Positions 5,130 to 63,549 of a DNA stretch of 64,000 nucleotides are shown in pieces; positions within the stretch are counted from its first letter, which is position 1, and each line of letters begins with the position of its first letter. The notes under the pieces are model-generated. The model searched no databases. It worked only from the letters and a program-made list of their open reading frames with translations, and was not told the origin of the DNA. The DNA is from an uncultured Candidatus Saccharibacteria bacterium (GTDB lineage: Bacteria > Patescibacteriota > Minisyncoccia > Phycocordibacterales > UBA2100), in contig CAZZHR010000002.1 in NCBI GenBank assembly GCA_964654205.1, positions 65,800-129,799 on the forward strand, in the 5' to 3' direction. A program made the translations under genes and the position numbers.

Positions 5130-5348
5130 TTATTGCGGAAGGAGAGGGGGCGCGTCAGAACCACCGGTATTGAATAAGAGAAACGCTCCGACGAGCGCCA
5201 GAACACCAATGCCGATGAGTGTATAGATGGCTGTCTGCCTGTCTCCCACGAGTCCCCACGATACGAGCTTGTCCGCAAAGTCGCCGCGTTCCGCAGCGGG
5301 CGGTCTCCCGAATTCGTCGTTGTTGCTGTCAAAACGCATGTCGCTCAT
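5130..5348 (-). CDS. Small membrane protein (72 aa, C-terminal TM helix), hypothetical
   Basis: ORF immediately upstream of the pilin gene. Hydrophobic stretch IYTLIGIGVLALVGAFLLF. No recognisable domain. Confidence 0.35.
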   Translation of the reverse strand: MSDMRFDSNNDEFGRPPAAERGDFADKLVSWGLVGDRQTAIYTLIGIGVLALVGAFLLFNTGGSDAPPLLPQ

Positions 5349-9611: not shown

Positions 9612-10112
9612 CTATAAACTCATCACTACCTTCCCAATAATGTCGACTTGTTGAACTGCTCCGAAGACGCGCCCATCGCTGCTCTTGCTGCGATTGTCAC
9701 CGAGCACAAGGTAATCTTCTGGCCCGAGTTGCATACGAAATGCTCCATTGTTCGTCCCGCCTATCATGCTTCCCGTCTCGTACCTCGTACTCTTTCCTTC
9801 GCTATCAGTGACCGTCACTCCATCTTCGCCAAGCTCTACAAGCTCACCGGGCAAGCCAATCACCCGTTTCACTTCAATCACCTCTTTCTGGTGCGGATTG
9901 CGATGCACGAGTATGTCGCCACGGCTAATGTGGAATCGGTGAGTCACCTTTTCGACGATAACAACGTCGTTCGCAGAAAACGTCGGCTCCATCGAGCCGC
10001 CAGAGACCACGTACGGACGGAAAATGAAAACCGAAGACAGCAGCGCGAGCGCAATGACAGTCGCAATCGTCTCTTTGTGCGTTCGTATCGTTGTGTGCAA
10101 TTGGTACGTCAT
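9612..10112 (-). CDS. lepB: Signal peptidase I
   Basis: N-terminal TM, catalytic-Ser box GGSMEPT and the VLGDNRSKSSDGR box. Start lies 3 nt after the stop of the giant upstream gene. Confidence 0.8.
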   Translation of the reverse strand: MTYQLHTTIRTHKETIATVIALALLSSVFIFRPYVVSGGSMEPTFSANDVVIVEKVTHRFHISRGDILVHRNPHQKEVIEVKRVIGLPGELVELGEDGVTVTDSEGKSTRYETGSMIGGTNNGAFRMQLGPEDYLVLGDNRSKSSDGRVFGAVQQVDIIGKVVMSL

Positions 10113-10114
10113 AT

Positions 10115-13100
10115 CTAAATTTCCATCCCGAGCATGAGCGCGAGGGCTTGGACGAAGCTGTTTGATGTGGCGGCAGGGGCGGCAGAATATTTGAACGGCT
10201 GCTCCGCGAACGCGGCGTAGACCATTGTGTCGCCGCTCGTGTTGAGGAAGGTGGTTCTTAACTTGAAACCATTGGCTAGAGAATCAATGACGTCTGCGGG
10301 TGCCGACTCTTGAGACGAACCATCGGCGCCCAAAACGCCACTTATTGGATTGTAGGTGTTCCTTGTTGTATCCAACATCCACCAACTACCCGTCGTTCCA
10401 ACCGCGGGCTTAAGCATGACAAACCGCGGCTTGAAGCCGGTGTAGACGAACGGACCGTCGGTCGAGCCATTGCCGGTGTAGGAGCCAAATGCCGACATGC
10501 CGGTCGTGGAGGCAAAGAGGTACGCCGCGTACTCGCTCCCGCCACCTACGCCGCCCGGTGTGCTCGAGGAATCGGTGAGTGCGCCGTTCTCCGTAAATGC
10601 TCCGCCTCGCCCCCTGTTGATGTGCCAATTGTCGCTCGTTCCAGAGAAGTACACATCGGGGACGAGTGTGGAACCGACCCCGATGACGGGCACGGGTTCG
10701 CCATTCGCGTCGATGAAGAAGCGCCTATTGGCTTCGACCGAGAGGTCCAGGCTCGTCCCGAACTTTATCCAAAGGTCTTTGATGTCTCCCGTGAGCTTGA
10801 AGCCCGCGTCCGGTTCCGCCCCCACCGCGAAGTTGCCTCTCGTCCAGTCGATCGTGTCGTTGGTAAGCGTGGAGCCGCCCGAATTGAAGTCGCTCACATC
10901 GTTGCGGTAGACCCAGGCGGAGCCGGTGTTTAGGTCGACCGAGAAGAGGTAGTGCACCCAGCCACTCGAGGCGAGCGTCTGCGTCGAGGAGTTCAGGATC
11001 ATGTCGAAGTTGTTGGACGCGTCGAGCCCCACGACCTGGATCACCTGCGTACCCGCCGTGCGTACGATGTAGAAGCCCGTGCCGAGGTCTCCCGTCGCTG
11101 CGATCGTCTGGTTGGTGCTATCTGCGCCCGTAATGTTGACCCAAAAAGAGACAGTTAACCGTTTGCCGTCCACGACGTCTGTGAGGTTTGCACCGCGCGT
11201 GAGGTAATCGTTGGTACCGTCGAAATGCGCGGCGCCGCCTTTGTTCACATCGGCATTCGTCCCCACGGTGAAGGCGCTTGCGGTAGGCGCGGTGTCGTTC
11301 CAGTAGGTCGCGTCGTCGGCAGTCGCAGCTGTGCTGTTGAGCAATAGATAGTCAGTCGCCGGTGCAGATGTATTGGACGAGTGATAGACCGCCCAATCGC
11401 CGGAGCCCGAAGCTTGTGTGTACGAGCGGAGCATCGCGCTCCCCTGATCGGCGATCGCCACGCTTGTGGCAGAGAGCGCCGCAACCGCGGGGTTCGGAGT
11501 CGTGCCGTCGACGATACCGCTCCCGTCGGCCACCTCTCTCCAATCGGTACCGTCGAAGGCGTACACACGGAGCTCGTTGGTCGTTGAGTCCACGAATGCC
11601 ACTCTGTTGCGGCCCAGCGCCGCCATGCCCGTCGAGCCTCCACTCGATTCGATTGTGAGAGAATTGCCCACCTGAGACCAATTCGTGCCGTCGAAATCAT
11701 ACGCGCGCAGCTGCTTTGTCCCCGAGTAGTCGTAGAGGGCTACGCGCGAAGCCGAGAGCGCCGCGAGGGAAGGGAGTGTGATGCCGCTGATGTTGAGCTC
11801 GTTCCCAGTCAGAGTCCAGTTGGTGCCGTCGAAATCATACGCGCGCAAGTCGTCGTTGGTGCCGTCGATAAAGGCTATGCGGTCGGACAGGAGCCCCGCA
11901 AGCGCGGGAGATCCCACGCCCGAGATGTTGAGCTCGTTGCCGGTCAGCGACCATGTAGAGCCGTTGAAATCGTATGCGCGCAAGTCGTCATTCCCGCTGT
12001 CAATAAATGCGACACGGCTCGAAAGCATAGTTGCGAGCGAGGGCGACCCTATACCCGAGATGCTGAGTCCGCTTCCTGTGAGAGACCAATTCGACGAGCT
12101 CAGGTCGTATGCGCGCAAAGACGCATTCCCGAAATCAACATATGCCACCCTCGTCGCGGAGAGCGCGGCAAGCGCGGGAGTATTGATACCGCTTATCGTG
12201 AGGCTGTTGCTCGTCTGTGCCCAGTCTCCGCGCACCTCTTTCACGAGCATGAAGTCCGGCGCTTTACCGAGCGAATGGCTCACCGTCCTGCTCTTACCCG
12301 TCCCCTTGTACGAGACGATGTCGAACCCGGCCTCCGCCGTCTCTTTCCAGAGCCATGAGATGTAGTTCTTGCCGCTCGTGTTGACGTTGGCCGAGCTCGC
12401 GCCGGAGCCGAGGCTGAAGCCGTTGTCGTCGTACGACGTGAGCGATTCCGTGTCGTCGACATCTTCACCGGCGGTCAGATTGGAGCTGAGCCACGCCTGC
12501 ACCCCGCGCAGAGCATCGAAGAGCGCATGGTTGGTCGAAGCGTCGGTACGGTTCTTTATCCACACGAGGTCGGGGCTAAAGCCGGTAACCGTTGTGCTTG
12601 TACCCGTCTGGTAGACAGACTTTGCCGCACCCGTGCCTGCGTACGCGATCGCATCAAAATAATTCTTCGGCACCACCACATCCGGCTCGGGCAAGTTGGC
12701 GGTCGAGAGTGCTTTGAAGCCAGAGGGCGGTTCGTATCTGAAATATCCCCCCGCCGCCGAGTAGTGCGTCGTCGTAGTTGTCCCTGGCTGACCAAAGTTT
12801 ATTGAAGCGCTTGCACCCGTGTAGACGGCGAGTGATGGAAATACAGGGTCAGCTCCGCTGAGTGTGGCGGCAGCTCCTGTGCCTCCTACTGGGTCACCAC
12901 TGTTCTGCCATGTCCCGTTTTTTGAGAAGTAAATCTTCTTGTTATCCAAATCAAGCGCTACACCGACGACATCGTTCGTTGTAAACGTATTGCCGTACGC
13001 GGCATTGGTCCCTCCGTTGTACGTCGTACCATCATGCCCGTAGTAGCTGATGCCCCCATTAGCAGACGAGCCGCCGGGAAATGCGCCGAGTGTCATCGGA

Positions 13101-14242
13101 GTGAACGCTGTGGAAGTTGCAACCCCGACGAGATAAAAATTACTGCCACTACTCTGTGCACCAGCTGTCACTTCCCAATACCATTTACCACTCGTGACAC
13201 CAATAATTGAGAGTGCCGTAAGAAAATTCCCAGCACTATGAGTCATACTCAAGTTGCCTTGAGAAAGAGTCAGCGAAGAGTTTTTGTAAATCGAGTTAAG
13301 TGTCGCAAACGCGTTCGTCGGGGTGTCGATGACTTGGTCGGTTGCGTCGAGGTTGTTGGCGGTCCAGTTGTTGCCGTTGCCGGATGTGTCGGTGCCAAGC
13401 GCCGCACTGTTGCCAAAGGCGAGCTTGAAGCCATTTGTCCCATACGTGCCCGTGTACGACTTCGGCCGCCAGTATCCATTGGCGTCGTACTCGCCGAAAG
13501 AGGTGGGCGTGAGCGCCTGCCCGTCGACAAAATGTAGGTCGGAGAGGTAGACATCAATCGAGCAACATGCACCCCCTTGTTGCTGACCGATACGATTGTT
13601 CGCATTGGCGAGCGCGAATTGGTACTCAGCGTTTTGTGCGGGATAATTCGCAGCGTCAAACGCCGTAATCTGCATCCCATCGATGTACATCTTCACTCTA
13701 TTCGCTGCAGTCGCATCTGTCGTGTCCCACACAACTACGACATGCATCCATTTTGATGGATCGCGAAAAAGTGCCGAGCTGCGAAGTTCGGCGGAAGTAG
13801 CCCCGCCGAAGGCGAAACTCAGGTTGTCCGCTGCAGCGCCGCCCGCCCCGAATTCAAGCCACGAAGAATTGCTCGACGAACCATCGTAGCCGGCAACTAT
13901 CGTTTGTCTCGTCCCCAAATTCCCCCTTTTTATCCACGTAGATATCGTTCCCTTCTTACGGTCAGCGGGTGCACCGGAGAATGTCTTGCTTAGGTTTGCA
14001 CTGTCATCGTCGTTGAAGCGAGCGCTGTTCGCGATCGTGTACGCCGCCTCCGCCTGCGGGAGTGTGAGAAGCGCAAACTGCGCGCCAAACCACGCCAGCG
14101 CGACAATCGCCGCCACAACCACCCGCCACCTCCACAGCCCGTTCAAAGCGTTCAAGGAGGCGTGCAAGGGGCGCCCTTGCACATGTGCAAGGGCGCCCCT
14201 TGCGCCGGAGATTTTGAGAAACTTGGTGAAGAGATTACTCAT
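10115..14242 (-). CDS. Giant secreted/surface protein (1375 aa): LamG/ConA-like, SPRY, seven ~40-aa tandem repeats, a second LamG-like domain
   Basis: SPRY signature GKWYWEV...VGVA...DVVGVALDLDNKKIYFSKNG. Seven repeats of I(S/T)G(I/V)G(S/T)P(S/A)LA..LS.R(V/I)AF(I/V)D.GN..LRAYDF(N/D)G(S/T)NW(S/T)LTGN.L. N-terminal TM. A likely alternative start is the GTG at 14122, preceded by GGAGG. Confidence 0.8.
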   Translation of the reverse strand: MSNLFTKFLKISGARGALAHVQGRPLHASLNALNGLWRWRVVVAAIVALAWFGAQFALLTLPQAEAAYTIANSARFNDDDSANLSKTFSGAPADRKKGTISTWIKRGNLGTRQTIVAGYDGSSSNSSWLEFGAGGAAADNLSFAFGGATSAELRSSALFRDPSKWMHVVVVWDTTDATAANRVKMYIDGMQITAFDAANYPAQNAEYQFALANANNRIGQQQGGACCSIDVYLSDLHFVDGQALTPTSFGEYDANGYWRPKSYTGTYGTNGFKLAFGNSAALGTDTSGNGNNWTANNLDATDQVIDTPTNAFATLNSIYKNSSLTLSQGNLSMTHSAGNFLTALSIIGVTSGKWYWEVTAGAQSSGSNFYLVGVATSTAFTPMTLGAFPGGSSANGGISYYGHDGTTYNGGTNAAYGNTFTTNDVVGVALDLDNKKIYFSKNGTWQNSGDPVGGTGAAATLSGADPVFPSLAVYTGASASINFGQPGTTTTTHYSAAGGYFRYEPPSGFKALSTANLPEPDVVVPKNYFDAIAYAGTGAAKSVYQTGTSTTVTGFSPDLVWIKNRTDASTNHALFDALRGVQAWLSSNLTAGEDVDDTESLTSYDDNGFSLGSGASSANVNTSGKNYISWLWKETAEAGFDIVSYKGTGKSRTVSHSLGKAPDFMLVKEVRGDWAQTSNSLTISGINTPALAALSATRVAYVDFGNASLRAYDLSSSNWSLTGSGLSISGIGSPSLATMLSSRVAFIDSGNDDLRAYDFNGSTWSLTGNELNISGVGSPALAGLLSDRIAFIDGTNDDLRAYDFDGTNWTLTGNELNISGITLPSLAALSASRVALYDYSGTKQLRAYDFDGTNWSQVGNSLTIESSGGSTGMAALGRNRVAFVDSTTNELRVYAFDGTDWREVADGSGIVDGTTPNPAVAALSATSVAIADQGSAMLRSYTQASGSGDWAVYHSSNTSAPATDYLLLNSTAATADDATYWNDTAPTASAFTVGTNADVNKGGAAHFDGTNDYLTRGANLTDVVDGKRLTVSFWVNITGADSTNQTIAATGDLGTGFYIVRTAGTQVIQVVGLDASNNFDMILNSSTQTLASSGWVHYLFSVDLNTGSAWVYRNDVSDFNSGGSTLTNDTIDWTRGNFAVGAEPDAGFKLTGDIKDLWIKFGTSLDLSVEANRRFFIDANGEPVPVIGVGSTLVPDVYFSGTSDNWHINRGRGGAFTENGALTDSSSTPGGVGGGSEYAAYLFASTTGMSAFGSYTGNGSTDGPFVYTGFKPRFVMLKPAVGTTGSWWMLDTTRNTYNPISGVLGADGSSQESAPADVIDSLANGFKLRTTFLNTSGDTMVYAAFAEQPFKYSAAPAATSNSFVQALALMLGMEI
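14162..14205. repeat. Two abutting copies of a 21-nt GC-rich near-palindromic REP-like element (GTGCAAGGGGCGCCCTTGCAC / GTGCAAGGGCGCCCCTTGCgC)
   Basis: Read directly from the sequence. A third copy lies at 14733-14753, inside the adjacent RAYT gene. Confidence 0.75.
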
Positions 14243-14901
14243 ACTTCGTCGAGCATTAATTCTCGGACTGTCGATTTCCGTGCGACGATGTCGTCGAAAG
14301 CGTCTTCAACGAAACGCTGGTACTCGCGCGCACTCTTGAAGTGCTCAAGGATTGTTGCCGTATCACACAATCCCCCGGTATCTGGCGAGAGGTACTCGGC
14401 ATAGCTACTATGCGGCCACTTTCGAGCGTCTCGCACAAGCTTCGCCACTTGGGGATTCACATGAATATAGGCCGAGAGGTGTTTGAGTTGCGTATCGTCT
14501 ACCACATGCACGGCCTTGATGCGATCCTGAAATACATGTCCCACATGATCGTACTTGCGATTGAAGTACATCGAGTAGCTCGTCAGTAGTTTCAGAAAAA
14601 GTTTACTAATCGATACATCTTTGTTCTGTCGTATGAGAAAATGGAAATGATTAGGCATAAGACAGTACACAGCAATCGAGAATGCATCTCTTTCGAATGG
14701 CTCGATGCGAATCTGGACGCGCTTCCCGCCGGTGTGCAAGGGCGCCCCTTGCACATCGCGACCGAGAGAGCGCATAAGTCGGTCTAGGAAAACTCGTGCA
14801 TCCTCATCATCTCGAAGGATGTCCATCTTGCCATTGCCGCGGCTGAAGAGGTGGTACCACTCTCCTGTCGAGAACTCTTTGTAGTCGCGTGAATTTGTCA
14901 T
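14239..14901 (-). CDS. REP-associated tyrosine transposase (RAYT; IS200/IS605-like Y1 HUH transposase, COG1943)
   Basis: GEWYHLFSRGNGK, HUH motif YCLMPNHFHFLI, KLLTSYSMYFNRKY, and catalytic-Tyr region WPHSSYAEY. Contains an in-frame REP copy. Confidence 0.75.
   Translation of the reverse strand: MTNSRDYKEFSTGEWYHLFSRGNGKMDILRDDEDARVFLDRLMRSLGRDVQGAPLHTGGKRVQIRIEPFERDAFSIAVYCLMPNHFHFLIRQNKDVSISKLFLKLLTSYSMYFNRKYDHVGHVFQDRIKAVHVVDDTQLKHLSAYIHVNPQVAKLVRDARKWPHSSYAEYLSPDTGGLCDTATILEHFKSAREYQRFVEDAFDDIVARKSTVRELMLDEV
14733..14753. repeat. REP-like 21-nt palindrome GTGCAAGGGCGCCCCTTGCAC inside the RAYT coding sequence
   Basis: Identical to the units at 14162-14205. Encodes DVQGAPLHT in the RAYT frame. 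Confidence 0.75.
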
Positions 14902-14911
14902 ACTCGATTAG

Positions 14912-17900
14912 TCATCTAAAGCCCGTGGCAGCCGCGCCGAATACGACGAGCGAGCTGGTCGCATTGGTCGCGACAAATGAGACGAGGTCACATTGGTTGG
15001 CCGTCGTGGTGAGTGTCGGTGCGCTTCCACCCTGCCAGCGCACGACCGCTGGCCAGGTCAGTGTGCGGCTTCCCGTGCCGTCTTGGCACACCACGAGACG
15101 GAGGATTTGCCCCGCGATGAAATTGGAGAATGTAATCGTGCGGTTGCCGCCGAGTGTCACCTTCTGCTGGTTGCCTTCAAGCCAGTTGATAGCCACGGTC
15201 GCGCCGTCGGAGAGACTCCTTTCCACCGTGGTGATAGCGCCACCCGCACCCACCGCAAATTTCGCAAACGGCGTCGATGTACCCACACCCACGTTGCCGT
15301 TGGCGTTGATGACAAAGAGGGACTGCGCTGTGGTGGAAGCGACCTGTATGAAGTTGGTCGAGCTATCCTGCGTCTCTATCGTGAGCTTGGCCGCAGGGGT
15401 CGTGGTGCCGATTCCTGCCGCTGTCTCTACATAGAGCTTGCCCGCTCCAGTCGGCGACGTGGGGCAGCCGGATGCGCAGACAAGGAGGTTGTCGTCGGAG
15501 AGCAGAATGTTTTTGTTGGACGTGTGTATCGTAAGGTCGCCAGTCGAGTCCACTTGGAGCGAGGCGACCGTGGAATCATTGTACGAAATCGCTACCTGAG
15601 GATTCGCCGCTGCAGCCGTCACCGAGAACTTGCGGTACGGCGATGTGGTGCCGACACCGAAGAATCCGGCACTCGTGGCGCGCATCACCTCGGTGAGCGC
15701 GCCACTTTGCAGTGTCGAGAACACGAGGTCGCCCTTCCCGAGCCCGCCGAAGTTCTGTTGCAAGATGCTCGTGATTGCAGAAGTCGTCGTACCCGTGCCG
15801 GTGACATCGAGCGCGCGGAATGAGAGCCGCGATGCGGTCGATGTCGCGCTCGCCGCATTGGTGAGGTAGAGCTGGTCGGCGGTCGCGCCGGAAGATGTGT
15901 TGTAGACATCGAGCTTCGTGCCCGGCGTCGTCGTACCGATGCCGACATTGCCCGTGCTGGTGATGCGCATTCGCTCTTGGCTCGACTCATATCCACCAGT
16001 CCTAAACTGAATACTGTCGGAGCCGCCTGATGCAACATTCCCGTTGGTAAAGAGCACCAGACTAGTATTCGAACCGAAACTCGTGTTTCCGCCGAGACCG
16101 TATCCGACACCAGACCCGTACGCACGGAAGTAGCCTGTCGCAGTATCGCTATGTACAGTGTATGTGCTCTGACCATTGCTATTTGCATTCGTCACCGTGA
16201 CCCCGTCGACGCTCGCTACATTGCTGTACACAGTGAGTTTTGTAGACGGAGTCGTCGTCCCTACCCCCACGTTGCCGGTGTTTGTCACCGCAAAGAGCGA
16301 GCTCGTCGCGCTCGCGGTCGAGCTCGCTATCTCGAAGAGCATCGTATTGGTCTCGCCCGACAGTGCGTGCACTGAGAGCTTAGCCCACGGCGACGACGTG
16401 CCGATACCGAAGCGCGCATTGACCGTATCCCACGTGAGCGTACTCGACGCCGCCATCACGCCGCCGTAGTTGAATTGTATGTTGCCGTTGCCGCCTGCCG
16501 GAGCCGAGCCGCCGGATGCGAGGAGGGAGCCGGAGAAGTATGTGTAGACTGCCGAACCATCGACAGCTGTACCCGTTGAAAGCACCGCTGCTTCGAGATA
16601 GTCGGATGTTCCATTCATGTCGACAATGGTGGTTACTTGCGCCGCATCTGCACCACCCGATCGATAGGGACCGTTTGCTATCGCGACACCGTTCTTACGG
16701 ACAGCTGCCTGACAGTTGTTTGTGGTATTTGTACATCCAACAGACGCGACAACGATATACTTGCCGGCTACCGTAGGTGTGAAGCGGTTGGTCGTTAGGT
16801 CAAAATTGTTGTTGGTATCGTAAGTTTCAGTCGTCCAATCGACCACAAGTACCGTATCGCTCACAGTGGTTGTCGCCGACCCATTGCGATGCACATGGAA
16901 CGCTACCGTAGAAGAAGCGGTTCCAACCGTGCGGTTCGTGTAGACCTTGACCGCGAATCCGCCTGCGCCGCCTGCGCCGCCTGCGCCTCCAGTGCCCGCA
17001 TTTCCAGCGCTACCCCCGGAGCCAACGGTGAAATAGAAAGTCCCCGTCGGACTGCCTACAAGCTCGTACGCGTATCCTCCGCCTCCACCTCCGCCTCCAC
17101 TCCATACGTTGTTGAGATCATTGATTCCGCCGCCAGCCCCTCCTCCTCCGAACGCGTTGCCTGCGCCGCCTGCTGCCGTAGTACCCGCTCCGCCACCCCC
17201 ACCGCGGGCACCATTGCCCCCCGCTCCTCCCACTGCGTACAGATCTTGCGTCTCCCCACCATCCGCATCAATACCAAGCGTGAGTCCGCCTGCACCACCA
17301 ACGAGATTTACTTCGCCACCGGAGCCAGAACCGCCAGATGCCGCAGGCCCATTGGAGCCAGACCCACCGCCTCCGCCCGTCGCACTTAAGTGCGGAGAGG
17401 AGCATGCGACAGAATTGCTTCCGAAGCATGTCGTACCTCCTACGCCACCATTGCCGCCGTTGCCTCCACCGCCACCCCCTCCACCGCCGCCCCAAACCTC
17501 CACTTCTATATATGACGTATCGCTCGGGAGCGTGAGCGTGCCACCGGAGAAGCTCGGTGCGCTGCCGGGGTCTCCGGTGAAGACCACCGACGAGGTTCCC
17601 ACAGTGGAAGTCGCGTATGTTCCTATGAGCGTGTTGCCACCACCTCCGCCTCCACTCGAGCCGCTCCCCGTCCCCGCACACTGTCCGCTCGGGAGCAGGA
17701 AGCAGCCGCTCGTGAGTTGGACGCCACCCGCAAAGGTGGATGTTGCCGAGCCGGTGATATTGAGGAGTGTTGATTGAATGCCGCCAGAGAATGTTGTGGT
17801 GGAAGGCGACCCAAACGTCGCTGCGCCGGTGGATGCCGAGAACGAGAGCGCGGCTACCGTAGAAGTCGACGAGTGCGTCGAGGTGGCGAGGTAGAAGGTG

Positions 17901-20900
17901 CTGCCGATGTTGCGGAGTGTCCAGAGATTGCTGCCGAGCCCGTCCGAGAGCGCGAGCTGCGGACCTGTCGAGCTCGCGACCGTAAGAATATGGTACGGTG
18001 TCGTCGTACCGATGCCGAACGTACCGTTGAAATAGCCGAGACCGTTGTCGAGAATGCGGAAGCGCGTCGTCGAGGCGGAGTCGAAGAATTCCGTGAGTAT
18101 GCCCGTGCCCGTCCCAGATCCCTGCACTGAGAGCTTAGCCCACGGTGACGTGGTGCCGATTCCGACGTTGCCCGTCGAACCCTGAATGAGCATTCTCGTC
18201 GCGTAACTCCCGGCCGTTGCGTTGGCCTTGAAATGGAGGTCGCCATTGTTGCCCGTCTGCCCTATCTCCGCCCAGCCCGTGCCAGTACCCGCGCCGCCGG
18301 TCGTGAATATCATGCTGCCGACGTTGCCTGTACCGGCTCTGTTGAGGAAGAGTCGGAAGTCGCCCGACGTGTCAAAGGCCGCACTCGTACCGAAGACGTC
18401 GAGCTTACTCCCCGGCGTCGTCGTACCGATTCCCACGCTGCCGGTGCTCTTTACCGCCAAAAGGTCACCGCCGGATCCGCTCGATGAGTTGAGCTGCAAG
18501 AGGTCCGCGCTGGAACCGGTATGAAGACTTCCAACGATGACGGGCTTCGCGATGTCGTGCTCGTTGTAGATGTTGAAGATACCTGTAAAGGTCGGGGAGG
18601 TTTTGCCAAAACCGATCTCCCCCGTGGGACTGACGATGAAGGCGTTGACGCCGTCGGTCCTGTTCTGGAAGAAGAGCGCCCCAGCAGGAGTATTGCCGCT
18701 ATCCCCCGCGAGGAAGCCCCATTTCTTACCGCCGGAGTCCGTATTCTGGAGATTGAACCACGGATCGCTGCCGCTCACATGGAACTTCGCGTCGCTTGAA
18801 GCTGCGCCCACGCCGAGCAGACCCTGCACGAGTAGGTTACCTGTCGTCGTCGCGCCGCCTGAGATCGTGAGGCCGCCCGCCTGTGTGCCGTCGCCGATGG
18901 TGGAACTTGCTGTGACACCGAGGCCGCCAGTTACAGCGAGTGTGGTCCACGGACTTACGTTGCCGATACCGACACTTCCACCACCGCTTTGAAGGACGAG
19001 ATTATTCCATGCACCGGCACCGCTGCTCTGTGCGCTGAGTCCAAAATAAGTATTGCCCGTGCTCGCGCCCGACGCTACAAAGAGCACCGAACCGGCTGAA
19101 CCAGAGACCCAATCGCTCGTCGTTATCGCAAGTTGTGAAGGCGCATTACCGCCAGTAATTTGCAACTTACCGTTGGTCGGACTCGCCGTGCCGATACCGA
19201 AGTTGCCGCTGATGCGGTCGACGAAGACGAGCGGCGAGGAGGTACCGACGGTAAAGAGCGAGGTCGATGGCGGCGTCGATGTGCCGACGGCGAGACCGCC
19301 GGAGGCGATTGTGCTCGTCGCCGTCGTCGAAGTGGCGACGAAATATGAAGCGTCGACGAATGACGTAAAGCGAGCATTGCCACTAACGTGAAGCTTATAG
19401 GTGGGAGAGGTATTACCTATACCTACAGAGCCAGCTGTATTGAGGAACAATAAGTCTGTCGCCGCGGCGCCCGTGCTGATGGAAAATCCAGAGCTATCGT
19501 TACCACTGATTCCGACTTTCCATTCTGGAGTCGTACCGCTTCTGACAAAGCTGACATTCGGTGCCACATTTCCGTTTATCAAAATTCCTTGATACGTCGT
19601 TCCTGCAGTCACATGGAGTGGCTGCTGCGGATTTGTTGTTCCAATTCCAACCCGACCGCTTGGGTTCCAAATGCCGGAGCCCGGGAAGAATGCGGTGCCA
19701 GAGACAGAGAGCGCGGTTGAGGACGCATACGGGAACGTGGACGCTGCTGTGGTAGAAGTCGCAGTGAAGATTGGCGCGGTGATGGTGTTGTATGCGGTGA
19801 GTGCGCCGCGCAGGAGTGAGCTGCCCGCGACTGAGAGGTTTCCGCTTGAGTCGATGGTCGTCGTCGCGCTGCCGCCGAAGTACGCAGTGCCAAAGTTGGA
19901 GAAGTTAGTACTCGACGCATTCCCCGAGAATATCTGGAGCGCCGTCCAGTTGTTGGAGACACTTGTGTCCACGGAGCCCCCACCGCCCGTGATACAAGCA
20001 CCGTCTACGGCAAAGCATCCGTCGGCGAGGTTTATTCCATTGGCAAATGTGGTAGTAGCCGAGCCGGTAAAGGTAATATCGCTCAGCGTAGTCCCAGAAA
20101 GGGTACCGCCCGTAATCGTCGAGTCGGAGATATCGACGCTGCTGAGCTGATCGATTTTGTTTGTGTGCGCGACCGTCTGATACACATTGGTAATACTTGC
20201 CGACTGCGCTGTAGAGACACCGGCGACGAGGCTTGTGAGTCGCTGTTCCACGGCTGCGATCCGCGTATCGAGGTCGGCATCCGTGATGCCGCCGACAGAT
20301 GCAACTATGCGCTCGGTCTCGACGATACGTTCAACGACTCGTTCGTTTGTCACCACAGTCGATGTGCTCACAACAACAGGCGTTTGCTGCGATTGCGCTA
20401 CGATAACCTGTGCGCGTTCATACGGATCCATCGTGTCGATGAATCCCGCATCGAGCGGTGTAAGTGCGAGCGAGTTCGTCGCGTCACTCGGGAACACGAT
20501 GTTGTAGACGAACGTGTCGACGCTCGTGTTGACTGCCTTCGCGATGGTGCGCAGCGCATCAGGGAAGAAAGAAAGTGTCGCGCTCGATACTTGTGCGAGC
20601 GCGACCTCGGGATTCTCAACCGCATAGTACGTCGCATCACTCGCCGCGCGCACCGCGCGCGTCGCCACTTCATCAACTCGTACGAGCGACTGCGCGACGC
20701 TCGCCGCCATCTCGCGCGTAGTCTCCGCTGCAAACCGCGCATAGGCTGGGTCGACAAACGCATACGTGCCAAATGTCATGGTGAACGCAACGAGCATCGC
20801 GACAAACTTCTGCAGAAACTCCGTCGCGGGAGAAATCGTGTACACCGGCACGTGCACATGTGCGTGACTCAAAGTACGAGCAACCGCCTCGTGCACGCCC

Positions 20901-21349
20901 GACGGCGCCGCTGCGATAGACGGCATCGCGTGAGCGACCTTCGCGCTCTGCGCCACCGCCGCAGCCTTCAATTTTTCCTGCACATGCTTCGCGTGCGCCG
21001 CCAACGTCTTCGTCACAGGTATTTGTCCGCTCACAGAAAGGGCGCTCTCGACACTCTTTACACTTTCAGATTTCAACTTTATATCTTGTGGCTTATTCTC
21101 CACCCCGTGATATTCACGCACCCGTTCATCCGACAGCTGCTCCCTGCGGATGGTTTTCGCATGCTCTTGCTCCACGAGGTATTTTTGGAGCGAGCCCTCA
21201 TCGACGTACCAGTTCTTGCCGATTCTTCTACCGCGAAGCCTTCCATCACGGCAAAGACGAGCGATGTAGTCGCGAGAGAGCCCTGCACTGGATGAAGCAT
21301 CCCCGGCCGAGAGGTGCTTCTGCCCGTCGAAATATATTTCGTTGCTCAT
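14912..21349 (-). CDS. Giant membrane protein (~2145 aa): cytoplasmic excisionase-type HTH (HTH_17-like), one TM, then a huge extracellular fibre-like region with >25 GN(V/I)GIGTT(S/T)P..KL.V repeats and a poly-Gly stretch
   Basis: Start set at the ATG at 21349 (MSNEIYFDG). The listed ORF begins at an upstream GTG. N-terminus LSRDYIARLCRDGRLRGRRIGKNWYVDEGSL aligns with the HTH repeats of the neighbouring gene. TM is FLQKFVAMLVAFTMTFGTYAFV. Repeats resemble tail-fibre proteins. Confidence 0.8.
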   Translation of the reverse strand: MSNEIYFDGQKHLSAGDASSSAGLSRDYIARLCRDGRLRGRRIGKNWYVDEGSLQKYLVEQEHAKTIRREQLSDERVREYHGVENKPQDIKLKSESVKSVESALSVSGQIPVTKTLAAHAKHVQEKLKAAAVAQSAKVAHAMPSIAAAPSGVHEAVARTLSHAHVHVPVYTISPATEFLQKFVAMLVAFTMTFGTYAFVDPAYARFAAETTREMAASVAQSLVRVDEVATRAVRAASDATYYAVENPEVALAQVSSATLSFFPDALRTIAKAVNTSVDTFVYNIVFPSDATNSLALTPLDAGFIDTMDPYERAQVIVAQSQQTPVVVSTSTVVTNERVVERIVETERIVASVGGITDADLDTRIAAVEQRLTSLVAGVSTAQSASITNVYQTVAHTNKIDQLSSVDISDSTITGGTLSGTTLSDITFTGSATTTFANGINLADGCFAVDGACITGGGGSVDTSVSNNWTALQIFSGNASSTNFSNFGTAYFGGSATTTIDSSGNLSVAGSSLLRGALTAYNTITAPIFTATSTTAASTFPYASSTALSVSGTAFFPGSGIWNPSGRVGIGTTNPQQPLHVTAGTTYQGILINGNVAPNVSFVRSGTTPEWKVGISGNDSSGFSISTGAAATDLLFLNTAGSVGIGNTSPTYKLHVSGNARFTSFVDASYFVATSTTATSTIASGGLAVGTSTPPSTSLFTVGTSSPLVFVDRISGNFGIGTASPTNGKLQITGGNAPSQLAITTSDWVSGSAGSVLFVASGASTGNTYFGLSAQSSGAGAWNNLVLQSGGGSVGIGNVSPWTTLAVTGGLGVTASSTIGDGTQAGGLTISGGATTTGNLLVQGLLGVGAASSDAKFHVSGSDPWFNLQNTDSGGKKWGFLAGDSGNTPAGALFFQNRTDGVNAFIVSPTGEIGFGKTSPTFTGIFNIYNEHDIAKPVIVGSLHTGSSADLLQLNSSSGSGGDLLAVKSTGSVGIGTTTPGSKLDVFGTSAAFDTSGDFRLFLNRAGTGNVGSMIFTTGGAGTGTGWAEIGQTGNNGDLHFKANATAGSYATRMLIQGSTGNVGIGTTSPWAKLSVQGSGTGTGILTEFFDSASTTRFRILDNGLGYFNGTFGIGTTTPYHILTVASSTGPQLALSDGLGSNLWTLRNIGSTFYLATSTHSSTSTVAALSFSASTGAATFGSPSTTTFSGGIQSTLLNITGSATSTFAGGVQLTSGCFLLPSGQCAGTGSGSSGGGGGGNTLIGTYATSTVGTSSVVFTGDPGSAPSFSGGTLTLPSDTSYIEVEVWGGGGGGGGGGNGGNGGVGGTTCFGSNSVACSSPHLSATGGGGGSGSNGPAASGGSGSGGEVNLVGGAGGLTLGIDADGGETQDLYAVGGAGGNGARGGGGGAGTTAAGGAGNAFGGGGAGGGINDLNNVWSGGGGGGGGYAYELVGSPTGTFYFTVGSGGSAGNAGTGGAGGAGGAGGFAVKVYTNRTVGTASSTVAFHVHRNGSATTTVSDTVLVVDWTTETYDTNNNFDLTTNRFTPTVAGKYIVVASVGCTNTTNNCQAAVRKNGVAIANGPYRSGGADAAQVTTIVDMNGTSDYLEAAVLSTGTAVDGSAVYTYFSGSLLASGGSAPAGGNGNIQFNYGGVMAASSTLTWDTVNARFGIGTSSPWAKLSVHALSGETNTMLFEIASSTASATSSLFAVTNTGNVGVGTTTPSTKLTVYSNVASVDGVTVTNANSNGQSTYTVHSDTATGYFRAYGSGVGYGLGGNTSFGSNTSLVLFTNGNVASGGSDSIQFRTGGYESSQERMRITSTGNVGIGTTTPGTKLDVYNTSSGATADQLYLTNAASATSTASRLSFRALDVTGTGTTTSAITSILQQNFGGLGKGDLVFSTLQSGALTEVMRATSAGFFGVGTTSPYRKFSVTAAAANPQVAISYNDSTVASLQVDSTGDLTIHTSNKNILLSDDNLLVCASGCPTSPTGAGKLYVETAAGIGTTTPAAKLTIETQDSSTNFIQVASTTAQSLFVINANGNVGVGTSTPFAKFAVGAGGAITTVERSLSDGATVAINWLEGNQQKVTLGGNRTITFSNFIAGQILRLVVCQDGTGSRTLTWPAVVRWQGGSAPTLTTTANQCDLVSFVATNATSSLVVFGAAATGFR

Positions 21350-21640
21350 GAGCGATGATGCCTGTGGCCGGACGCACGATTTATCTAATATTCTACTACT
21401 CTTTTCGCCAATTGGACGTGTATCGGACACTATTACGTGTGGACAAGCCTAAGCAGAATTTGTACCGGACATTTTTTACATTTTTTCCCACAAGTTCGTA
21501 TCAACGCACAAAAAATTCTCCGTTTTTTTGAAAAAAAGCCTCTTCACTACAACCTCTCACCTCTTACCTACCCCCCTCCTCCCGGCCGACTCGGGCATCC
21601 GAGGAGCGACGTAGAGCGGTATTCCGCGCGTGTGTGGCGC

Positions 21641-62724: not shown

Positions 62725-62771
62725 ACGCTCCTAGTGCACAAACATCTTTATAGTCCTGTGTACCCCTCCCT

Positions 62772-62816
62772 CCCATGAGTGACCTCGTAGGTCACTCATG
62801 GGAGGTCACTCATGGG
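62772..62816. repeat. Inverted repeat CCCATGAGTGACC-tcgta-GGTCACTCATGGG followed by a second direct copy of the right arm (GGTCACTCATGGG)
   Basis: 13-bp perfect stem with a 5-nt loop at 62772-62802. Arm duplicated at 62804-62816. Lies directly downstream of the rsmI stop. Confidence 0.65.
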
Positions 62817-62823
62817 TGCGCTT

Positions 62824-63549
62824 TTATGCCGAGGACTGCGGCTCGATGATGACGACAAATTCTCCCCGCTCGGCCTTGCGCTTCTTCAGGTCTGCGGCGA
62901 GTTCTTTCGGCGTACCAGAGAGCATTTCTTCATGGAGTTTCGTGAGCTCGCGACCGATGTGCACTTTGCGAACTTTTACCACCTCAAGCTCCGAGAGGAG
63001 CTTCTGAATGCGGTGAGGCGACTCGAAAAGTACGACCGGGATGCCGCCCTGTGGTGAGCCTGGTCGAACCATCGCGGCGACTCTTTTTACAAATGTCTGA
63101 CGTCCTTTTTTGTGCGGCGCGAATCCAAGGAATGCGAACTCCGGCGACGCAAGCCCTGCAATCGAGAGCGCCGCGGTGAGCGAGCTTGGCCCTGGGATTG
63201 CGTCGACGAGTCCGCCGCCCTCGCGCACAAGTGCGACGAGGCGCGCGCCGGGGTCGGATATGCCCGGCGTCCCCGCGTCCGACACGTAGACCACATGCTC
63301 ACCGCTGAGCACGCGCTCGAGCACTTCTTTCGACTTCTTGCCCTCCATCGCCGCATCGAGTCGCTGGAGCGATTTTCTGATGCCATAGTGTGCGAGCAAC
63401 TTCGACACGACACGCGTGTCTTCTGCGTAGATAACACTGCACTCTTTCAAGTTCCACAGCGCCCGGAATGTGATATCGCCCATGTTGCCGATGGGCGTGG
63501 CGACGATAGAGAGTTTCCCCTGCTCGGTCTCCCTTGAGACTTCGTTCAT
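62824..63549 (-). CDS. rsmI: 16S rRNA (cytidine1402-2'-O)-methyltransferase RsmI (tetrapyrrole-methylase fold)
   Basis: LSIVATPIGNMGDITFRALWNLKECSVIYAEDTR matches the RsmI N-terminal signature. 241 aa. Confidence 0.8.
   Translation of the reverse strand: MNEVSRETEQGKLSIVATPIGNMGDITFRALWNLKECSVIYAEDTRVVSKLLAHYGIRKSLQRLDAAMEGKKSKEVLERVLSGEHVVYVSDAGTPGISDPGARLVALVREGGGLVDAIPGPSSLTAALSIAGLASPEFAFLGFAPHKKGRQTFVKRVAAMVRPGSPQGGIPVVLFESPHRIQKLLSELEVVKVRKVHIGRELTKLHEEMLSGTPKELAADLKKRKAERGEFVVIIEPQSSA

Follow-up and report, generated by a model that had tools for sequence, protein, structure and literature searches.

An in-frame palindrome in a TnpA_REP/RAYT-type gene: a probable REPtron-like unit of Patescibacteria

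Introduction

Does a short palindrome lying inside the gene of a putative transposase disrupt that gene, or do gene and palindrome belong together? The question is raised by a locus within the window, i.e. the whole 64,000-nucleotide stretch analysed here, which covers positions 65,800 to 129,799 (forward strand) of contig CAZZHR010000002.1 in assembly GCA_964654205.1 from an uncultured Candidatus Saccharibacteria bacterium. The locus combines a gene for a Y1 protein with HUH motif and several copies of a 21-nt near-palindrome, one of them within the reading frame of the gene itself. In an earlier note the gene had been described as a Y1 HUH transposase of the type associated with repetitive extragenic palindromes (REPs), abbreviated RAYT, and it was considered that a REP might have disrupted it. 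From the analysis reported here, gene and palindrome probably constitute a REPtron-like unit of Patescibacteria (candidate phyla radiation, CPR), composed of a vertically inherited TnpA_REP/RAYT-type gene and its cognate 21-nt hairpin, in which the gene would be functional and not disrupted.

Conservation and predicted structure of the Y1 protein

The Y1 gene (14239..14901, minus strand) encodes a protein of 220 amino acids which is assigned to the Y1/HUH single-stranded DNA (ssDNA) endonucleases of TnpA_REP/RAYT type by Pfam, sequence alignment, an AlphaFold (AF2) model and Foldseek. The HUH motif is formed by His85-Phe-His87 (PNHFHF), and the catalytic tyrosine is Tyr145 within YIHVNP. The open reading frame (ORF) encodes YCLMPNHFHFLI and WPHSSYAEY; the SS tail motif (WPHSSY) is present, as is a C-terminal helix. 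Pfam Y1_Tnp matches the protein with an E-value of 4e-9 and 37.1 bits against a cutoff of 23.

The family comprises 810 homologues, and those named by taxon are Patescibacteria (Paceibacterota, Doudnabacteria, Yanofskybacteria). In the family alignment (A1) residues His85, His87, Tyr145, Asn149 and Pro150 are invariant, all of which align to the sequence of TnpA_REP (4er8), and conservation is strong in the N-terminal block RDYKEF..YH.F.RGN.K too. Searched against the PDB, the family profile has E. coli TnpA_REP (PDB code 4ER8) as its sole match. The AF2 model has a predicted local distance difference test score (pLDDT) of 87 and a predicted template modelling score (pTM) of 0.84 and displays a complete HUH fold, for which Foldseek returns chain 4er8_A as best match (E = 7e-7, TMt 0.70), the transposases of IS200, IS608 and ISDra2 ranking below it. 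The assignment to the REP-associated type made in the earlier note is thus borne out by a Pfam score above cutoff and by one and the same E. coli enzyme as sole sequence match and best fold match in the PDB. A second Y1-type gene is absent from the 64-kb window, and an exact look-up of the protein returned two short Logan contigs and no others.

A pseudogene, or an enzyme crippled by REP insertion, might be suspected because the Pfam and NCBIfam profile alignments both begin only at residue 70, as if the N-terminal part of the protein were interrupted. The ORF is uninterrupted, however, with HUH motif and catalytic tyrosine intact; the N-terminal block is among the best-conserved elements of the family, the AF2 model is confident and shows a complete HUH fold, and the insertion is common to all members of the clade to which the window belongs. 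Furthermore, comparison with the orthologous gene of locus L003 gives identities of 0.75, 0.84 and 0.44 at the first, second and third codon positions, respectively, which indicates purifying selection on the Y1 protein with synonymous sites near saturation. Inactivation by the palindrome is highly improbable in the light of these observations. Judged from sequence and model, the gene appears functional and undisrupted, and its product an intact TnpA_REP/RAYT-like enzyme.

Copies and folding of the palindrome

The 21-nt near-palindrome GTGCAAGGGCGCCCCTTGCAC occurs in three copies in the window, all of them at this one locus. A search with the 15-nt core CAAGGGSSSCCCTTG and up to two mismatches recovers the same three sites and nothing further in the 64 kb. 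In dinucleotide-preserving shuffles the 21-mer is expected 0 times and the core 0.28 times, and three copies were reached in no shuffle. The three copies reported earlier are thus confirmed.

Exact matches to GTGCAAGGGCGCCCCTTGCAC are found on the plus strand at 14734-14754 and on the minus strand at 14162-14182, whereas the plus-strand copy at 14185-14205 has one mismatch. The coordinates of the latter two copies had been given correctly as 14162-14205; the copy inside the Y1 gene had been placed one base off, at 14733-14753, the extended palindrome at this site spanning 14733-14755. The copies at 14162-14182 and 14185-14205 are mutually inverted and separated by a spacer of 2 nt, by which a perfect 40-nt palindrome (14164-14203) is created. 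This REPIN-like inverted doublet (14162..14205, without strand assignment), delineated by sequence search and folding, starts 35 nt 3' of the Y1 stop codon. As ssDNA a single copy folds with -13.5 kcal/mol (z = -3.0), and the doublet forms one 20-bp stem with -28 kcal/mol (z about -8). The locus therefore displays the form of REPs and REPINs, namely a short GC-rich palindrome, a stable hairpin and an inverted doublet.

All three copies are located inside the longest ORFs. Read from the sequence, the palindrome is devoid of TAA, TAG and TGA in all six frames, so that it can survive in coding sequence wherever a few Gly, Ala, Arg, Pro or Leu residues are tolerated. A T-run 3' of the hairpins was found at none of them.

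The in-frame copy and its loop

On the gene strand, the copy at 14734..14754 (minus strand, like the gene) reads GTG CAA GGG GCG CCC TTG CAC, i.e. V49-Q-G-A-P-L-H55, and the Y1 ORF passes through it as VQGAPLH with the frame kept, 32 amino acids ahead of the methionine of MPNHFH. In the AF2 model the hairpin-encoded segment is part of a loop between helix 32-45 and strand 74-81, ahead of the HUH strand 86-92, and residues 51-60 of this loop have a mean pLDDT of 54. The spacing from Arg41 to Phe74 is 32 amino acids in the window, compared with 22 in the shortest, hairpin-less homologues and up to 48 in others, hence the added segment amounts to about 10 residues, 7 of which are encoded by the hairpin. 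Alignment, model and spacing thus agree with the earlier placement of the third copy in-frame within a surface loop, while the insertion of about 20 amino acids claimed at the same time is roughly halved by alignment with the family.

Hairpins at homologous loci

About 90 homologous loci from metagenomes were surveyed, with MPNHFH as anchor. The hairpins were chosen for perfect stems, and the evidence consequently lies in their recurrence within a locus and their difference between loci. Most of the genes are accompanied by lineage-specific perfect hairpins located at about -260 to -330 nt (5' flank) and +410 to +480 nt (3' flank) from the anchor. At a subset of loci the same lineage hairpin is found within the ORF as well, at about -65 to -103 or +211 to +233 nt. 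These internal hairpins are confined to two loops of the protein, the first (loop 1) 22-42 amino acids before the HUH methionine and the second 70-78 amino acids after it, just past YIHxNP. Every ORF with an internal hairpin is intact (24/24), and the hairpins are read in each of the three frames and in either orientation. Cognate copies number 183 in the interval from -450 to +600 nt around the anchor, as opposed to 28 elsewhere in about 720 kb. 5' and 3' flanking hairpins are inverted with respect to each other at about half of the loci and direct at the others.

At the same positions the hairpin sequence differs between lineages, and the internal copies co-vary with the flanking ones. With its own hairpin in each lineage, repeated at gene flanks and in loops across some 90 loci, the family bears out the proposal that the palindromes are cognate to the enzyme. 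Some subfamilies are without internal hairpin (P0052 group). The neighbouring clades P0027 and P0044 also carry a loop-1 hairpin: their loop peptides MPRGALG and KTRGTLA seem hairpin-free as protein, while the DNA contains the hairpins ATGCCAAGGGGCGCCCTTGGCAT and CAAGGGGCACCCTTG. Since neighbouring clades possess loop-1 hairpins too, the loop copy goes back to an ancestor of much of the family.

The repeat might alternatively owe its conservation to the encoded peptide (QGAPL/RGAL), or be a chance palindrome or a terminator unrelated to the enzyme. A GxPL-like peptide does recur in the loop of many homologues. Yet the frame in which this DNA is read differs between sites, giving VQGAPLH in the Y1 gene and ARGALAHVQGRPL in the adjacent giant gene, unrelated hairpin sequences take the same positions in other lineages, and the third codon positions of the repeat are all conserved. 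A terminator is at odds with the missing T-run, and a chance origin with a shuffle expectation of 0. Taken together, this explanation is hardly credible.

Retention and turnover among the closest relatives

In a rough neighbour-joining tree the window groups with loci L014, L098, L095, L096, L094, L097 and L003. The loop-1 hairpin is present in all eight clade members (48-100% identity, the 48% referring to L014) and is a perfect palindrome in each. Inner members of the clade have the loop copy and no copy in the 5' flank, whereas most other clades show the reverse. In the inner clade the upstream gene either overlaps the Y1 start or stops 1-24 nt short of it. In the window this is a giant gene of 2172 amino acids (14912..21430, minus strand) whose end is separated from the Y1 start codon by 10 nt, which leaves no room for a 5' flanking hairpin.

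The 69% identical orthologue of L003 is accompanied by the same three hairpins in the same positions and orientations as in the window. Its loop hairpin is identical in 21/21 nt, while the adjoining 7-codon blocks agree in only 11/21 and 8/21 nt. Across the clade the core CAAGGGGCGCCCTTG is invariant and the outer stem varies with compensating changes (GTGCAAGG/CCTTGCAC, CTCAAGG/CCTTGAG, GGTCAAGG/CCTTGACC and GCCAAGG/CCTTGGC), one genome having one outer-stem variant that is common to all its copies. The number of hairpins varies between genomes, being one or two in loop 1 and likewise one or two in the 3' flank. An extra doublet is located at L003:17105-17141, 39 nt past the start codon of the signal peptidase S26 gene, and represents a presence/absence polymorphism relative to the window; the signal peptidase of L003 is 13 amino acids longer in its N-terminal tail than the window orthologue, which has no doublet. 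In L098 four more copies are found in or beside LamG genes 4-5 kb upstream. The sequence patterns indicate turnover or homogenisation among the copies, as would be expected of a REP/RAYT system, here at very low copy number. The loop hairpin itself is not a recent disruption.

From the same patterns it could be argued that the in-ORF hairpin and the 3' doublet act in cis and are maintained by selection instead of being tolerated as passengers. The in-ORF copy might then be the left REP of the REPtron, and the hairpins a site by which the enzyme, or stalling of ribosome or polymerase, throttles its own gene. This overlaps with the REPtron-like unit proposed above, from which it differs solely in whether the copy is functional. 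The same loop holds a perfect palindrome in all members of a deep clade (48-100% identity) as well as in two clades adjoining it; in the most variable part of the protein 21/21 nt are kept, although third codon positions are only 44% identical; the hairpin sequence co-varies with that of the flanking copies; and the inner clade has the loop copy without the 5' flank copy where most other clades have it the other way round. Concerted evolution through repeated transposition or gene conversion, however, would yield the same pattern without any benefit, frame and orientation vary between lineages, and subfamilies such as the P0052 group manage without an internal hairpin. A selected cis-acting element is accordingly a minor but appreciable possibility, and a functional role for the retained loop hairpin is considered unlikely on balance. 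Rather doubtful is the specific proposal that the internal hairpin replaces the lost 5' flanking REP and is kept palindromic by selection for self-sensing or self-limitation, or alternatively serves as an excision switch. In the latter variant, cleavage at the directly repeated loop and 3' copies, which are 549 nt apart, could remove the catalytic core and thus act as a self-inactivating switch. If a function of this kind were true, a coding loop would double as DNA or RNA recognition site of its own protein, conserved across a large family of Patescibacteria.

Apart from this, several short Logan and ENA contigs with the Y1 gene, namely those of L001 (ending at 2182, hairpin at 2153-2169), L002, L009 and L010, end within a doublet of 40-44 nt or no more than about 15 nt past it. 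Assembly from short reads thus seems to fail at this perfect palindrome.

The 3' doublet and the leader of the downstream giant protein

Directly downstream of the Y1 gene follows a surface-protein gene (10115..14242, minus strand) of 1375 amino acids with DUF7483 (E = 1e-82) and SPRY (E = 5e-16) domains according to Pfam. The longest ORF of this gene begins with an ATG in a 4-nt overlap with the Y1 stop codon and reads through the doublet as GARGALAHVQGRPLHAS. From an alignment of orthologues (A2), residues 1-66 (14045..14242, minus strand) are predicted to be a signal peptide, in which a long n-region containing the hairpin-encoded ARGALAHVQGRPL is followed by WRWR, a hydrophobic core and AEA|AYTIANSARF. 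The position of the cleavage site is a prediction based on the AxA rule and on the neighbouring gene for a signal peptidase. In the same alignment, conservation at the protein level begins at Trp37 and extends through the AxA|AY site, while upstream of Trp37 only the initial Met and the hairpin-encoded RGAL are invariant.

Of the two starts put forward in the earlier note, only the ATG would have the doublet translated. The frame is open in 5/5 intact orthologues, each of which has an ATG at or overlapping the Y1 stop, one or two hairpins and then the signal peptide; the hairpins always read ..RGAL.., and the tails are 31-37 codons long. The alternative GTG start (14120..14122, minus strand, codon V41) is located 6 nt after GGAGG and downstream of WRxR. 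This WRxR is conserved across the orthologues through the synonymous Arg codons AGG, AGA, CGG and CGC, which argues that it is translated and disfavours the GTG at 14122. In L003, moreover, the codons between doublet and Trp are ACA and CTC, neither of which is a start codon, so that translation there must begin in the hairpins or further upstream. In the window, the TTG codons at 14155 and 14146 are possible starts as well. On this comparative evidence the ATG at 14242 is, with fair confidence, the more likely start of the giant gene. Of the two options put forward earlier, the reading of the doublet as GARGALAHVQGRPLHAS from the ATG stands, and the GTG with its GGAGG 6 nt upstream does exist; as a start, this GTG is contradicted by WRxR and by L003.

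Two further features of this region may be mentioned. The mature N-terminus after AxA, AYTI(A/S)NS(A/L)RF, is nearly invariant in the orthologues, and the rest of the leader varies. In the copies at 14185-14205 of the window and L003:10746-10766, an in-frame TTG in the 3' arm of the hairpin lies 6 nt past an AAGGG in the 5' arm. AAGGG and TTG in one stem resemble a buried Shine-Dalgarno sequence and start codon and might, speculatively, constitute a hairpin-gated alternative start for the giant gene.

Gene neighbourhood

The giant DUF7483/SPRY gene is directly followed by a gene for signal peptidase I (9612..10112, minus strand; Pfam Peptidase_S26, E = 9e-33). The gene order giant, Y1, DUF7483/SPRY (LamG) giant and signal peptidase S26 is common to the window, L003 and L098, and its visible part is also present in L095 and L096. 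The arrangement of upstream giant and Y1 gene is syntenic in L003, L095, L096, L097 and L098. Synteny is thus kept among orthologues at 60-70% identity, with a single Y1 copy in the window, and this conservation argues for vertical inheritance of a resident gene rather than for an active insertion sequence.

An active insertion sequence (IS) of IS200/IS605 type, with the hairpins as its left and right ends, would share fold and Pfam family with the TnpA proteins of IS200, IS608 and ISDra2. Elements such as IS608 and ISDra2 likewise combine the HUH/Tyr fold with subterminal hairpins recognised on ssDNA, and hairpins on both sides of the gene are seen in most homologues. On the other hand, the tyrosine motif is Y---NP (class 2, TnpA_REP-like) and not Y---Q, a single copy of the gene is present in 64 kb, synteny is conserved across 60-70% identical orthologues, and the neighbours are giant surface-protein genes without a TnpB-sized partner. 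A left end inside the ORF would strand the first 48 codons on excision, and the best structural match is TnpA_REP and not an IS transposase. IS200/IS605 elements further differ by being multi-copy, by ends of unlike sequence in the same orientation and by frequently encoding tnpB; none of this is seen here. An active element of this type is therefore very improbable. The readings as IS200/IS605 element, as pseudogene and as peptide-level motif have all been rejected, on the grounds of motif, synteny, codon positions and frame differences.

The upstream 2172-aa protein shows a weak N-terminal match to HTH_17 (E = 3e-4, below cutoff) and long Gly-rich stretches, and its orthologues in L003, L004 and L097 (2017-3108 amino acids) are likewise unannotated. 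In L098, a little upstream of the Y1 gene, two LamG-domain giant genes enclose a gene for a PemK-family toxin (L098:7364-7810); hairpin copies of this locus are found at the start of the first LamG gene and inside it, at 5182-5266 and 5991.

Two other palindromes of the window lie far from the locus. A perfect 34-nt palindrome at 1959-1992 (GTACCGATTCCTATCTATAGATAGGAATCGGTAC), unrelated to the REP, is situated 3 nt past the 5' end (1956) of a minus-strand ORF (1183-1956). At 62769-62805 a perfect 17-bp stem with a 3-nt loop (CCTCCCATGAGTGACC TCG TAGGTCACTCATGGGAGG) is separated by about 20 nt from a minus-strand ORF (62824-63549), past whose 3' end (62824) it lies.

A REPtron-like unit

For a REPtron a family of hairpins flanking the gene is characteristic; it is represented in the window by the 3' doublet and the loop copy, and at homologous loci by hairpins at both flanks. 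According to the arrangement proposed here, the norm of the family would be a gene bracketed by one or two lineage-specific hairpins in its 5' and 3' flanks. In the window clade, gene packing would have removed the 5' intergenic space, with the result that the left-hand hairpin is now accommodated in-frame in a putatively disordered loop between helix α1 and the strand preceding the HUH strand. The right-hand inverted doublet would be positioned just past the Y1 stop within the 5' end of the next ORF, where it probably contributes codons to the cytoplasmic n-region of a signal peptide that is cleaved off. Provided that the ATG at 14242 is the start, insertion of the doublet would be harmless because of its location in this n-region. 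By analogy with E. coli TnpA_REP, the enzyme would bind the hairpin on ssDNA and cut and rejoin the strand beside it, and such activity, or gene conversion, would keep the copies of one genome alike and perfectly palindromic.

Several observations weigh against this proposal. The score of the NCBIfam equivalog REP_Tyr_transpos is 52.2 bits and thus under its cutoff of 80, and we know of no biochemical activity for the Y1 family. Dispersal across the window is absent, the three copies in 64 kb all being located at the Y1 locus; a classical, dispersed high-copy REP family is not supported by the window. A search for the exact 21-mer pattern in 185,579 species-representative genomes, the source genome not among them, gave three single unrelated matches. 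The canonical 5' GT[AG]G guide is missing at the foot of the stem, which in the window is GTGC...GCAC and in close relatives CTCA, GGTC or GCCA; a GTAG...CTAC foot is present in a few distant lineages (L018). Finally, passive tolerance explains the long persistence of a perfect palindrome at one site no better than selection for a function would.

Comparison with known systems

E. coli TnpA_REP/RAYT, whose structure 4ER8 contains the enzyme bound to a REP hairpin, is the best fold match and resembles the system of the window in being encoded by a single-copy gene bracketed by hairpins and in the occurrence of inverted doublets (REPINs). The E. coli enzyme was reportedly studied together with REP sequences and bacterial interspersed mosaic elements (BIMEs) by Messing et al. 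and by Ton-Hoang et al., both in 2012. The proteins share 14% identity, and the long C-terminal helix is missing from the E. coli enzyme, which is shorter at 165 amino acids. The REPs of E. coli occur outside genes in hundreds of copies and have a GTAG guide, in contrast to the three copies in 64 kb described here, all of which are within ORFs.

A closer parallel is provided by TnpA_Y1 subclass 2.4, which in the Bertels classification is said to correspond to RAYT group 4. In-frame REPs inside tnpA_REP genes have been described, predominantly in this subclass, by Quentin, Siguier, Chandler and Fichant (2018, BMC Genomics 19:475, PMC6006769). Both there and here a low-copy Y1 HUH gene has cognate hairpins at its flanks and in-frame within its own ORF, the internal copies are in a peripheral variable region, and some of the subclass 2.4 hairpins are symmetric ('double foot') as well. 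The insertions differ in position, being located before the HUH motif in the window and after the Y motif in other lineages of the present family. The hosts are Patescibacteria here and Cyanobacteria or Bacteroidetes there, the GT[AG]G foot is absent here, and the copy number outside the gene is very low. With respect to the key motifs of subclass 2.4, NH[IFV]H, WQ and YIxNNP (PMC6006769), NHFH of the window fits, whereas FQ (GHVFQDR) and YIHVNP differ; NHFH, FQ, YIH[VLQ]NP and the SS tail resemble the motifs tabulated there for 2.1 or 2.6 more closely. The self-insertion is consequently not as unusual as had been assumed, given this precedent and the descent of the loop copy from an ancestor of much of the family.

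Many intragenic in-frame REPs (GTAG/CGTC) as well as the Rickettsia palindromic elements (RPEs) have been reported by Di Nocera et al. (2013, PMC3733652), together with the caution that REPs at the N-termini of ORFs may precede the real start. These are also short in-frame palindromes, often dimers encoding 20-30 amino acids, frequently at N-termini or in loops of proteins that apparently still function. They are scattered over many unrelated genes, whereas the copies described here are concentrated at the gene of the cognate enzyme. On REP/RAYT systems in Patescibacteria or the candidate phyla radiation, nothing specific was found in the paper library searched.

In-frame REPs in their own RAYT gene are thus already known, and the window is a new example which extends them to Patescibacteria, whose genomes have almost no intergenic space. 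Of possible interest to the specialist are the age of the internal copy, the palindrome of which was kept while the surrounding loop and the synonymous sites diverged, and the restriction of internal hairpins to two loops, in which they co-vary with the flanking copies. For annotation it is relevant that stop-free hairpins extend ORFs, create pseudo-motifs rich in Gly, Ala, Arg, Pro and Leu, and break short-read assemblies at the doublet. For the family as a whole, these loci offer a clean comparative data set for the question whether REPtron hairpins serve the gene that they bracket.

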